Below are positions 251 through 48,673 of a stretch of DNA of 64,000 nt, one piece after another. Position 1 is the stretch's first letter; the number at the start of each line of letters is the position of its first letter. The DNA is from Eledone cirrhosa (Eukaryota), in NCBI GenBank assembly GCA_964016885.1, contig OZ024744.1, forward strand, positions 44,950,001 through 45,014,000. The letters run 5' to 3'. A program made the translations under genes and the position numbers. A model generated the notes under the pieces. It had not been told where the DNA came from. It searched no databases and worked only from the letters and a program-made list of their open reading frames with translations.

Positions 251-939
251 TACGATATTAATAAATGGTAACTATATTTATAAAACCATATTTATTTCAT
301 TATACATATTTCAAGGATACCATGTTAAATTATGGTATGCCTTCATCAGACAAAATACAATATATACCAGTTTTATAAATAAACATTGACGTAACCTTTC
401 AAAATGCGACCGTTACTTTTGGAAGACATCAGGATAGTGGTTTGTTTATTTTAGTAAGTCGATGTGTTAAGGAGAAGGAAAAAGAGGGAGAGAGAGAGAA
501 ACCGAGAGAGAAAAGTGGAGAAAAGAAAGGGAGAGATAAATAAAGAAAAAGAAGAAAGAAAAAAGAAAAAAAGAAAACAAAGAAAAAACAACAGAGAGAT
601 ATCAAACCAAAGGCAGAGAGAACAAATCAAGGGAGAGAAATATAGAGATAGAGAGATCTTTATTTATCTCTCCCTTTCTTTTCTCCACTTTTATCTCTCT
701 CGGTTTCTCTCTCTCCGTCTTTTACCTTCGACTTACTAAAATAAACAAACCACTATCCTGATGTCTTCCAAAAGTAACGGTCGCATTTTGAAAGGGTACG
801 TCAATGTTTATTTATAAAACTGGTATATATCGTATTTTGTCTGATGAAGGCATACCATAATTTAACATGGTATCCTTGAAATATGTATAATGAAATAAAT
901 ATGGTTTTATAAATATAGTTTCCATTTATTAATATCGTA
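251..939. mobile_element. Non-coding fold-back (palindromic) PLE pseudo-LTR derivative with an HHR in each arm
   Basis: Arms ~251-546 and ~657-939 are near-perfect reverse complements around a purine-rich spacer; the right end abuts (TA)n. Confidence 0.8.
833..897 (+). ncRNA. Type I hammerhead ribozyme (mirror copy on minus strand ~293-357)
   Basis: tattttgt-CTGATGA(841-847)-stem II aggcataccat/atggtatcctt-GAAA(878-881)-tatgtat-A-atgaaata; stem I pairs over 8 bp including two G-U; AATAAA overlaps the 3' end. Confidence 0.8.
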
Positions 940-961
940 TATATATATATATATATAAAAT

Positions 962-1528
962 AATTATAATAAAATAACAGAAGGCTGGACTTGCGTAAAT
1001 CCTTGAAAGGTTTATTATAATATGATCATTTCAATGACCGGGTTCCGTATGAATCCGGTGATATCATCAGGTATTCGGAATTTAATAAATGAATGTAACA
1101 GATAAAATCCATGGGGCTGAAAATCATAGACCCGAGGACGACACCATCTAGCATCTGTAGCCGGTCGCCCTCAAGTGCCGGCTAAAGTTGAAGATGCTAG
1201 ATGGTCGGTCGTCCTCGGGTCTATGATTTTCAGCCCCATGGATTTCATCTGTTACATTCATTTATTATATTTCGAATACCTGATGATATCACCGGATTCA
1301 TACGGAACCCGGTCATTGAAATGATCATAGTATAATAAACCTTTCAAGGATTTACGCAAGTCCAGCCGCCTGTTATTTTATTATGATATTTAACTCCGTA
1401 CTCGCACCACCAACTACACAAACGAAGACGGTTGAGCTGCTTTACGTTGAGTACTCTCCATATTATTACATCAAGATTGACCGTACGGAATGACCAGCTC
1501 TATCCAGTGGTGAACCTTCAAACCTAAA
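962..1528. mobile_element. Second fold-back pseudo-LTR element with a 3' extension, between (TA)n tracts
   Basis: Arms 966-~1165 and ~1175-1384 are reverse complements; unique tail to ~1528. Confidence 0.8.
1276..1333 (+). ncRNA. Minimal type I hammerhead ribozyme (mirror copy ~1017-1074 minus)
   Basis: atac-CTGATGA(1280-1286)-stem II accggattc/gaacccggt-GAAA(1318-1321)-palindromic stem III ATGATCAT-A-gtat, followed by AATAAA. Confidence 0.85.
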
Positions 1529-1573
1529 TATATATATATATATATACATATATATATATATATATATATATAT

Positions 1574-44833: not shown

Positions 44834-45114
44834 ATATACATATATATATATATATATATATATATATATATATATATATATATATATATATATAAATTCA
44901 GCGAGAATCGTATTTCGGCAGGGAGAAAAAGCGAAACGAAACGCAAAATCAGAATTATGCTGGCAAGCGATCAATAGTTAAAAAACCAGAGCTAAACAAT
45001 ATGTTAAAACGACATACAAACTGGAAGAGTGGTCAAGAAGGCATTAACCAAGTAAGTCAAAAGACAAATAGAGCTAAACAGGTCAAACAATATATATATA
45101 TATATATATATATA

Positions 45115-46510
45115 TAATGAAAAATTGAACAGGGACAGAACAGAGAGGCAGTACAATAAATGTTTATTAAATTCACGCTCAGGAGAGTGGGGGAGTAGGT
45201 GGGGGACGACGTTTCGGGCATAAGCCCTTCTTCAGGTGAGAAGTGTGTGGGAACAGAGTTCAAAAGGTGTGTAGGGGAGTGGTGGAGAGACATATAGCGA
45301 AAGGAAACGGTGCGAATGAAAAATTAACAAATAAAGACAAAAAATATGATAAATAAAAATAAAGCATGATCAAAATACAAGGAATGAGAAAATTTTAAAA
45401 TAAAGGCATGATAAAAATAAACTGAAATTAAAAGGTGGGTAAACAGGTGGTGGAAGGGTGTGAGGTGAGTAGGGGTGTTGGCGGGTGGAGTGGGGAGAGG
45501 GAGACGGGGTGTCCGAGCGGGGAGGGCTGAAGGTGGTGTCTGTGGTTAGGTGTGCGTGTGTGTGTGTGTGTGTGTGTGTATGTGAAAGTGAGGGTTGGGG
45601 GAAGAACGGGGTTGCATGTTCAGGAAGGTGTGTGTGGGGGGTGTTTTTGTGGGTCGGAGTGTCTGTGCGTGTGTGGATAGGGGGATGGGGGGAGAGGAAT
45701 CAGGAGGCTGAGGGTGTAAATATGTGGTGGGAAGGACGTGTGTGTGGTTTAAGCGTGTTGTGGGTGTGGGTGGCGTGTGGATAAAAAAATGTTTTGGGGT
45801 GTGTGTGTGGGTGAGTTATATAGGTGATGGCGTAAGAGGATGGTTGAAAAGTTGGTAAGTTCCACAGATGTTTGGAGATTTGGTTAGAAGTCAATTTCGC
45901 GTGTGGGTAATCCAAGAAGCGGTGGTCGGAAGAGGAGAGATGTGGGGTGCGCGCGTAACAGGAAGTGGTCAGCAGTGGGAGTGCTGTGGTCAGTTGGTGC
46001 TGAGAGGTGGTCGGAAGGGCATAGCAGCAGTCGGTGGAATGGTAGGGAGGCGAGGATGGGTAGGTGTGACAGTTGGAGTGAGGGTGTGTGTGTGTGTGTG
46101 TGTGTGTGTGTGTGTGTGTATTAGTAGGGGTGTTAGTGGGATGAGTGAGTGTGGAGCGGGGAGAGAAGGGTGTGTGTGGTTCTATGGAGGGAGTGTGGTG
46201 TACTGGTGTGTGTGTAGTTTGGTGAAGAGGTGTTAGTGGGTGTTAGTATACGGGAGGTGGGGAGGGGTGGAATGCAGGTGTGAGTAGGGGTTAGTGGTGG
46301 TAGGGTGTGTAGAGTTGGTGGTGTACGAGGGTGTGTGGGTACGTGTGCGTGGGGTTGGGGTGTGTTAGTGATGTTAGTTGCATGTGGGGTGGGTGGTGTA
46401 AGTGGGTGCGTGTGTGCGTATGATAAGGAGGGGGAGGAGGAGAAGAGGGGAGGGAAGGGATGTTAGTATGTTAGTTGGGGAAGGGTGGTCAGATGAGGGG
46501 TGGAGTGGAG
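45115..46510 (-). mobile_element. Probable PLE 3' region (CA-rich on minus strand) with an HHR core at 45205-45235
   Basis: CTGAAGA-agggcttatgccc-GAAA-cgtcgT-C with a downstream AATAAA; stem I not evident; extent approximate. Confidence 0.5.
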
Positions 46511-47345
46511 ATATATAATAACTATAAATTGATTAATATATATATAAACATGAATAATCACAGGATATAATTTTTACAAGCGTGTAACCACGCATAGCTA
46601 GGTAAGTAACAAATAAATAAAGTTGACTAGAATTCAGAAATAGATACCTTTTAATATGATTAATCTTCCCTGTATATATTCCATTAAAGAAATATATTTC
46701 ACCAATTAATCAGATGGGAAGTCACGGAAGTGGATATTTTTGGATTATCAACAAGGAAGAAGAAATTTCCAGCAATCCATGCTTACACAGCGAGTTCAAA
46801 TCTTCAACTCGCCGCTACCGCGTGTGGTGTTTACACACCACAGCGGCTTCGTCTCAGTGGCGTGAATAGGTATTCGACAACTAGAAACAGCAGTTGATTC
46901 CTTTCAACAGAATTAGCTCTACAATTAAGGAGACGTATTTATATATCTATATCCAAAATTAAGATAAATTAAATGAATTTAATCCAAATCGAAATTATGG
47001 GTGTCATGCCACAACGGCGTGCGCCATGTCGCCCGGAAAATAAGCTCTATATATATATATATATATATATATATATATATATATATATATATATATATAT
47101 ATATATATATATATATATATATATATATATATATATATATATATATATATATATATATATATATATATATATATATATGTATGTATATATATGCATATAT
47201 ATATATATGTATATATATATATATATGTATATATATATAAATATATATATGTATATACATATATATACATATATATATGTATATATATATATATATATAC
47301 GTATATATATGTATATATATGTATATATATATACATATATATATA

Positions 47346-48673
47346 TGAACGGTAAAAAATGAAACGAAATTTCATTTCTCACTCTAAATATAAGTATGTA
47401 CACGTAAATAGATATATGTATACAGACGTACAGTAGTATGTATATATATATACATACATGCACACATATATATATGTAAGTATGGATTCACAGAACATTT
47501 ATTATAATGCTCGGTGTGTTTGTAAACAAACATCCCGAATTAAGCCATACAGTGTCTAGCAACCATAAATGCTCATTTGTTCAACACTGACAAAGGAAAG
47601 CTGTACTAGTTTCAAGCTTATTAGTTATCGTCAGTAACGTATACCTTCCTGCCAGATGGTTGAACGTCCGAAAGTATATACTTTCCTTATGCATATTAAC
47701 GGCTGAGCAGCCCAATTTTCATATCGAGTGAGTTAATCGGCCGGGGTACCCAAAATGATAAACGGAAAAAATGACACGAAATTTCATTTCTCACTCTTAG
47801 TACGGCTGTTACTTAAATATAAGTATGTACACGTACATACATATATGTATACAGACGTACAGTAGTATGTATATATATATACATACGTGCACACACATAT
47901 ATATATATATATATATGTACGTATGGATTCACCGAACATTTATTATAATGCTCGGTGTGTTTGTAACAAATGCGCAACGATTGTTGCTAGACACTGTACG
48001 GCTTAATTCGGGATGTTTGTTTACAAACACACCGAGCATTATAATAAATGTTCGGTGAATCGATACGTACATATATATATGTGTGCATGTATGTATATAT
48101 ATATATATATATATATATATATATATATACATACTACTGTACGTCTGCATACATATATGTATGTACGTATAGATACTTATATTTAAGTAACAGCCGTACT
48201 AAGAGTGAGAAATGAAATTTCGTTTCATTTTTTCCGTTCATCATTTTCGGTACCCCGGCCGATTAACTCACGCGATATGCAAATTGGGCTGCTCAGCCGT
48301 TAATATGCATAAGGAAAGTATATACTTTCAGACGTTCAACCATCTGGCAGGAAGGTATACGTTGCTGACGATAGCTAATAAGCTTGAAACTAGTACAGCG
48401 TTCCTTTGTCAGTGTTGAACAAATGAGCAAACGATGGTTGCTAGACACTGCACGGCTTAATTCGGGATGTTTGTTTACTAACACACCGAGCATTATAATA
48501 AATGTTCGGTGAATCCATACGTACATATATATATGTGTGCATGTATGTATATATATATATATATACATACTACTGTACGTCTGTATACATATATCTATGT
48601 ACGTATACATACTTATATTTAAATAACAGCCGTACTAAGAGTAAGAAATGAAATTTCGTTTCATTTTTTCCGT
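47346..48673. repeat. Third array of the retrozyme-like 434-bp family: ~1.4 minus units + ~1.6 plus units, inversion at ~47965
   Basis: HHR at 47599-47639(-) and a fully canonical HHR at 48360-48400(+). Confidence 0.85.
48360..48400 (+). ncRNA. Canonical type I HHR of the retrozyme-like unit
   Basis: cgttg-CTGACGA-tagctaataagctt-GAAA-ctagt-A-cagcg; stem I extends via ctggcagg/cctttgtcag beyond an internal loop; predicted cut after 48395. Confidence 0.9.

Follow-up and report, generated by a model that had tools for sequence, protein, structure and literature searches.

Hammerhead-bearing palindromes of Eledone cirrhosa as probable Penelope-like insertions with one tailed and one untailed end

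How do palindromes from unrelated sequence families come to share one architecture? This question is raised by a stretch of 64,000 nucleotides from Eledone cirrhosa (G000:C28:44950001-45014000, inside a 3.0-Gb assembly; the window), for which a first-pass annotation had described eight fold-back elements with hammerhead ribozymes (HHRs) pointing outward. The answer that we favour, with roughly two chances in three, is that these palindromes are 5'-truncated insertions of Penelope-like elements (PLEs) and of likely non-autonomous HHR units in (TA)n, whose mirror half arose by priming from both nicked strands at two fixed RNA sites. The palindromes could be confirmed without exception: after masking of simple repeats, self-BLAST detected inverted arms of 76-96% identity at 8/8 places. 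Pairwise comparison yielded only two relationships, as 47346-48673 is of the same family as 11570-13222 (94% over 340 nt), and 44392-44833 is related to 41864-42320 (66% over 451 nt). This leaves six families, in line with the proposed minimum. An HHR motif or its decayed homologue is present in 8/8 elements on the minus strand of the left arm and on the plus strand of the right arm, exactly as described. Below, the families are designated F1 to F7, FA and FB.

Most elements carry an extra tail of 35-143 nt on one arm and are, therefore, longer than first noted. Corrected extents are 163-937, 958-1527, 26358-29778, about 29880-30292 and 41864-42360. With tails included, the ends adjoin (TA)n, one of them through a (TG)n run; the earlier view that the elements end in (TA)n is correct in this form, while the boundaries given with it had to be moved for most of them. 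First-look searches returned ~1,000-2,500 candidates per family, and the best 30 loci for each of 8 queries were analysed with 1.5-kb flanks (240 loci). In 8/8 families searched, two fixed 3' ends were found, each followed by a microsatellite, together with variable 5' ends. The tails comprise 88 nt in F1, about 143 nt in F2, about 55 nt in F3, 82 nt in F4, about 80 nt in F5, about 35 nt in F6/F7 and about 70 nt in FA.

The same loci show how the ends are combined. Same-family neighbours on opposite strands are head-to-head in 82/85 cases and tail-to-tail in 3, and the HHR orientation is thus not random. Eleven head-to-head pairs are disrupted or run out of the locus, and 71 are classifiable. 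Among the latter, 66 have one tailed and one untailed end (p 6e-15 against 0.5). The ratio is 64/69 when two segmental duplicates of window copies, the only type of duplicate for which the mixed-end pairs were screened, are dropped. For FA, 7/7 partners are untailed, with the anchors (30/30) tailed by design of the query. In addition, 400 kb of genome were sampled blind (40 stretches of 10 kb). Here, same-family opposite-strand neighbours point outward in 9/9 cases and inward in none, whereas different-family neighbours point inward in 6 cases and outward in 2.

Which process could generate one tailed and one untailed end? A purified PLE acts on both target strands in vitro, cutting and extending each of them (PMC11167929). 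Reverse transcriptase (RT) has two internal start sites, which mark the limits of the tail; a dimer is predicted, and HHR cleavage is not needed (PMC11167929). We propose that a GIY-YIG/RT complex, probably a dimer, would cut both strands of (TA)n. One target 3'-OH would start RT at the outer site and yield a tail, the other would start it at the inner site without a tail. Both cDNAs would run toward the RNA 5' end and stop early, often at internal hairpins, and the two aborted cDNAs would be joined to each other to form a head-to-head insert with the RNA 3' ends outward. HHR cleavage would play no part in setting the insert boundaries. Every insertion would leave two TA tracts that likely seed the next one, resulting in clusters. 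A stronger form assumes that double priming is obligatorily asymmetric: one complex with one RNA would give each strand a start site of its own, either the outer or the inner one, tail and inverted pseudo-long terminal repeat (pLTR) would originate from a single step, and retrozyme-like RNAs would ride along. By extrapolation from 9 pairs in 400 kb, it would imply ~10^5 fossils of this kind, many likely annotated as MITEs (miniature inverted-repeat transposable elements) or as elements with terminal inverted repeats. The chances for and against this form are about balanced.

In snap-back or self-priming, one cDNA or, in a published proposal (PMC3846280), an antisense RNA folds and copies itself into the second arm. 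Such a process agrees with variants common to both arms, with an overlap of at least 2 nt at 9/14 gap-free junctions and with inner junctions that otherwise vary freely but cluster at internal hairpins or palindromes in F2 (near -200 to -218) and F5 (near -155 to -163). However, the tail is located on the arm reaching less far 5' in 23/39 pairs, on the longer arm in 15, and the arms are equal in 1; when differences below 30 nt are ignored, the first number is 21. This tally is our own count of abutting pairs in five non-tandem families, with 1 two-tail pair and 1 duplicate left out of 41. In five of the 23 pairs, one arm consists of the tail only (L019, L027, L045, L055, L120) and the two arms share no sequence. 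Since a copied arm cannot hold a tail that its template lacks, simple snap-back is contradicted as a general route, and we regard it as improbable. The end asymmetry with one tail per pair favours double target priming. Of the two mechanisms suggested in the first-pass annotation, the twin-priming-like one is, hence, preferred to snap-back. Self-copying may fit the inward-pointing FA palindrome at 35700-36046, the exception to the outward architecture shared by the eight elements. Its arms have private changes in common, its inverted piece abuts the 5' end of FB, and a paralogue lacks both this piece and FB. It is possibly a DNA-templated fold-back made during FB insertion.

Double priming could also involve two RNA-protein complexes and, consequently, two RNAs, with the start site set by the side of an asymmetric complex. 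Most arm differences are indeed not common to both arms. In 47347-48672 (L061), one allele is carried by both left units and a different one by both right units, and a tail is present at either end. Moreover, different-family head-to-head joins exist: L131 (F5 with F3), L245 (FA with an F7-like piece, the latter recognized by eye) and window position 36047/36048. These joins are few, though, and may be later insertions. Tail-only arms fit a single RNA whose inner part is already occupied, and rare non-CpG variants common to partner arms are in excess (39 vs. 10.4 expected, 35 pairs). Partner-arm divergence is 2.9% vs. 3.4% (35 pairs, p 0.027). Independent priming by two complexes should give at most 50% mixed ends. 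Two RNAs are, in our opinion, unlikely.

The arms were traced to their parent elements. Long F1 copies (L222, L223, L225) extend 1.8 kb upstream into an open reading frame (ORF) with RT and GIY-YIG motifs. F4 copies (L226, L233, L234 and window 27779-28566), FA and FB contain an RT / GIY-YIG ORF by pattern. The suspected retro-derived, PLE-linked nature of the palindromes is supported by these ORFs upstream of the F1, F4 and FA ends. The nearest Atlas clusters carry RVT_1, GIY-YIG and HTH_animal, and neither a direct Pfam scan nor PDB provided a match to the PLE ORFs. The ORFs carry DKT (visible only in the two ORFs reaching its region), RWR (one seen, not RWK), a CxCX5C linker, CxxC and CxH. 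These motifs are Hydra-clade marks, and nearly all Hydra families insert in (TA)n (PMC8557442). The supplement of the same paper contains an octopus Hydra family with HHR, Hydra-1_Obim, and the PLE ORFs resemble it as judged by eye. Neptune was dropped as clade after comparison with the published clade motifs: the CX2-5CxxC linker ahead of GIY-YIG, a mark of Neptune or Nematis, is absent from 12/12 ORF pieces scanned. By their motifs, F1, F4 (3' ends) and FA are classified as Hydra-type endonuclease-positive (EN+) PLEs. F1 and F4 have 3' untranslated regions (UTRs) of 1.2-1.8 kb. Asparagine-rich stretches between RT and endonuclease (window 35999-37810; L223, L225) bring to mind the N-rich inserts of rotifer PLEs. 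None of the copies retrieved is coding over its full length and carries both pLTRs; a direct tandem pLTR-ORF-pLTR unit was not searched for as such.

F3, F6 and F7 consist of tandem units of 320-430 nt, every unit having a single type I HHR; no ORF was found in them, and they range from monomers to arrays. They are retrozyme-like in unit structure and, judging from the shared end structure, likely non-autonomous HHR units and PLE passengers. Two satellite-like F3 arrays were encountered on C28, one of 26 units (24 forward, 2 inverted at one end; L302-L303, about 45.350-45.361 Mb) and one of at least 70 units (L307-L309, 45.660-45.689 Mb).

Two empty paralogous sites substantiate the targeting of (TA)n: the paralogue of 11642-13220 consists of left flank, short (TA)n and right flank, and that of 26358-29778 (L125) contains plain (TA)n between the flanks. 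In the blind sample, (TA)5 is present at most 250 nt downstream of 33/47 HHRs and upstream of 10/47, compared to 25% of random windows. TA flanks and a palindromic outline are also expected from MITE-like or fold-back DNA transposons, i.e. whole palindromes moved by a transposase, and one junction recurs in F7 (L151, L152, L153). However, L152 and the window copy are related by segmental duplication, and a comparison of breakpoints revealed junctions that vary between copies and asymmetric ends, with neither uniform length nor identical breakpoints. In addition, most copies are solo or tandem, and arms run into RT-GIY-YIG ORFs. We consider this explanation very improbable, and the first-pass annotation was right in setting the elements apart from MITEs.

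Palindromes may be produced as read chimeras. Fold-back artefacts of sequencing or assembly were considered. Junction 27778/27779 was bridged by no record among 24 of 1,008 records listed. By contrast, junction 656/657 is spanned by a short contig of run X1 (63 + 37 letters) and one of X2 (63 + 30), which come from one sample, possibly the assembly's own. Furthermore, arms are 4-24% different with indels, a family-specific tail occurs at one end only, and paralogous loci share junctions and have diverged independently. An artefact is practically negligible.

Several observations weigh against double priming of PLE and passenger RNAs. Five of 71 pairs break the one-tail rule (3 two-tailed, 2 untailed), and two of them are located in this window. 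Fold-backs are a minority: a partner directly adjoins 41/114 anchors whose 5' end is visible, 73/114 were rated as solo, and TA is present at the 5' junction in only 20 of the latter. In the microhomology check, 26/40 junctions were gapped against a single reference. The sharing of variants is modest and could be due to gene conversion or to a single active source locus. The clade assignment is based on motifs, not on a tree, and Pfam and PDB are silent. Finally, long copies and ORF scans tied no ORF to F2, F3, F5, F6 or F7, so that we infer their dependence on PLE proteins from the shared end structure.

What role do the ribozymes play? HHRs were called with our own type I minimal-HHR descriptor and by eye. 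The descriptor found 11 matches in the window vs. a mean of 0.1 in 20 shuffles; a stricter form had missed several families, and even with the relaxed one, window copies of F4, F5, F6 and FA had to be read by eye. Hammerhead is absent among 150 of 184 Rfam matches listed for the window and among 3 rows for 29500-29770; the matches are only microRNA-type hairpins below the gathering score. Minimum free energy folds of single HHRs and of shuffles did not separate (z -2.0 to +0.5). At 29014, CTGAGTA...GAAA was not accepted as HHR, as it belongs to another abundant repeat. The majority core is CUGAUGA in F1 (33/39), F2 (27/30) and F7 (34/35), CUGACGA in F3 (47/55) and UUGAUAA in F6 (36/68 pattern matches, many of the others spurious). 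F5 has CCGAAGA (28/31) with a family-wide U4C and a long stem II, F4 has CUGAGAA (27/31) with a family-wide non-canonical C3-A8 mismatch. F6 and its relative F7 are distinguished by a compensatory pair, U3-A8 vs. C3-G8. Many window cores are decayed: both copies in 44392-44833 are without GAAA, both in 29960-30296 are damaged, and 3/4 HHR copies in 11570-13222 have core changes.

HHRs reside 15-130 nt from the 3' ends. They point outward because they lie just upstream of the RT start sites near these ends. HHR cleavage was rejected as origin of the 5' ends, since arm ends do not pile up at HHR cut sites. Likewise, 5' ends do not cluster at the edge of HHR stem I, and their hot spots are upstream hairpins. 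It had also been suggested that any read-through transcript would meet an HHR and form long double-stranded RNA. Read-through RNA of 958-1390 is predicted to fold as one hairpin (-341.5 kcal/mol, z -47) with the HHR buried, and no cleavage of single min-HHRs was seen in PMC4209133. This indicates that an HHR in read-through RNA is likely without effect, while double-stranded RNA from such a transcript is plausible. No RNA record for the queried stretch was present among the matches listed.

Is the archipelago exceptional? The blind sample contains 47 HHR-like motifs vs. 0-2 in 5 shuffles, and they form 20 sequence clusters. HHR density is 1 per 6 kb in the window and 1 per 8.5 kb in the genome sample, so that the window is close to the genome average. 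The region is segmentally duplicated on C28: large parts of the window recur in inverted orientation near 45.36, 45.69 and 46.38-46.41 Mb, at 88-98% identity and with an insert content that differs. Beyond the eight elements, the window harbours fold-backs at 1574-2742 and 2757-3254 (Table 1) and at 41327-41460. Within 147-4400, at least six inserts from different families follow one another without a break, with (TA)n between each, likely due to serial insertion into regenerated targets.

Table 1. Fold-back elements, related PLE copies and (TA)n tracts in the window.
Feature	Position	Strand	Remarks
(TA)n target tract	147..162		
F1 fold-back, 3' UTR of Hydra-type PLE (by motifs)	163..937	left arm -, right arm +	left arm with 88-nt tail 163-250, right arm untailed; junction 656/657; HHR - 349-301, + 841-889
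F2 fold-back	958..1527		left arm untailed, right arm tail ~143 nt (1385-1527); HHR - 1070-1021, + 1280-1329
FA fold-back	1574..2742	long arm -, short arm +	long arm tailed, GIY-YIG ORF remnant 2088-2741; short arm untailed; HHR cores - 1704 and + 2679
Fold-back	2757..3254		short tailed left arm; right arm U3-A8 HHR + 3165-3203; family copies in L182, L197
F3 fold-back, tandem ~430-nt HHR units, retrozyme-like	11642..13220		left end untailed, right end tailed
F4 fold-back, Hydra-type PLE (by motifs)	26358..29778		untailed inverted arm 26358-27778; 82-nt tail 29697-29778; + copy 5'-truncated, starts 27779, GIY-YIG remnant to 28566; HHR with C3-A8 mismatch + 29596-29681 and - 26459-26374
F5 fold-back	29880..30292		left arm tailed, right arm untailed; junction near 30127 at an internal palindrome; HHR of U4C type, damaged in the left and the right arm, + core at 30164
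FA copy and inverted FA piece	34917..36047		FA copy + to 35890, (TA)10, short inverted piece; inward-pointing exception centred on TA
FB, 5'-truncated Hydra-type PLE (by motifs)	36048..38909	+	RT motifs, GIY-YIG region, 3' UTR, HHR 38812-38866, end in (TA)n
F6 fold-back, ~320-nt tandem-unit family	41864..42360		left untailed, right tailed; U3-A8 HHR cores - 42014, + 42166
F7 fold-back, relative of F6	44391..44839		both ends untailed (exception); HHR cores - 44547, + 44678, GAAA lost
Fold-back of tandem F3 units	47347..48672		both ends tailed (exception); intact HHR cores - 47634, + 48365
(TA)n tracts flanking inserts	938-957, 1528-1573, 2743-2756, 3255-3280, 11572-11641, 13221-13232		
(TA)n tracts flanking inserts	26308-26357, 29779-29820, 30293-30306, 44293-44390, 44840-44893, 48673-48692		

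Other repeats accompany these elements. Two miniature F4-related inserts are found at 41327-41460 and 41792-41842; in the former, the fold lies at the palindromic HHR loop III, and one of its ends is tailed while the other is not. A very abundant repeat in palindromic arrangement, with no HHR detected, occupies 48968-49407 and 24592-24771. More local inverted repeats in which no HHR pair was detected lie at 5985-6413, 23734-24399, 34705-34805 and 40069-40327. On the plus strand, 18560-21985 is a stop-free frame of 1141 aa of a non-long terminal repeat (LTR) retrotransposon (RVT_1 E 9e-23, zf-RVT weak). A second fragment of a long interspersed nuclear element is located at 22225-23518 on the minus strand. 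A long low-complexity repeat rich in Thr, Pro and Asn extends over 55900-64000; its open frames exceed 1,500 codons, and it may represent either a minisatellite or a mucin-like exon.

How does this locus compare with known systems? Inverted 5' pLTRs, an often one-ended tail and a (TA)n bias have been reported for PLEs (PMC8557442, PMC3846280, PMC8969392), and opposite-strand min-HHR pairs 100-700 bp apart have been described in Schistosoma (PMC4209133). The palindromes are not the separate class that had been suspected: their architecture is the published inverted-pLTR form of PLEs, here in new Hydra-type families, and the locus is ordinary for a PLE-rich genome. The addition is the end asymmetry. 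How the inverted repeats of PLEs are formed was named an open question (PMC8557442). Self-priming, as published, and double target priming can be told apart by the one-tail rule and by the tail-only arms, which also link the two-strand, two-site result in vitro (PMC11167929) to genomic products. Among the papers listed by literature searches, none has a count for the one-tail rule or suggests double priming as the origin of PLE inversions; Arkhipova 2006, Evgen'ev and Arkhipova 2005, and the supplements of PMC11167929 and of the preprint bioRxiv 10.64898/2026.07.22.740005 may bear on it.

With Hydra-clade EN+ PLEs (PMC8557442), the elements share a C-terminal GIY-YIG, DKT, RW[KR], CxCX5C, CxxC and CxH, the lack of CX2-5CxxC, an HHR near the 3' end and (TA)n. 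In contrast, F1 and F4 are longer than the published <3 kb because of their 3' UTRs, tails measure 35-143 nt vs. 30-40 nt, and at least 20 HHR sequence clusters and a very high copy number are observed here. The published PLE insertion unit (PMC3846280; PMC8557442, legend of Fig. 2) likewise comprises a head-to-head inverted 5'-truncated copy, a one-ended tail and palindromic junctions. Its description is qualitative and was read as self-priming, whereas mixed ends were counted here (66/71) and tail-only arms were found, which are not a product of self-priming.

Non-LTR retrozymes (PMC7229834; bioRxiv 10.64898/2026.07.22.740005) are non-coding tandem units of the 170-450 nt class with one type I HHR each, like F3, F6 and F7. 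The latter differ by ending in the PLE two-site signature plus an inverted arm; in the accessible text of both sources, a word search returned no passage on inverted arms or tails. Retrozymes have been argued to be PLE derivatives (bioRxiv 10.64898/2026.07.22.740005), and the shared end signature supports them as PLE passengers. With MITEs, the inserts share a short, palindromic, non-coding and TA-flanked look, but they have no fixed internal structure, asymmetric ends and an RT-encoding parent. MITE finders may, therefore, misfile them. In L1 twin priming, annealing of the second primer takes place far upstream, and the piece inverted by it does not overlap. Here as there, both target strands would prime and the two cDNAs would be joined at a 5' junction, whereas the starts observed here are only 35-143 nt apart near the 3' end, so that the arms duplicate each other.

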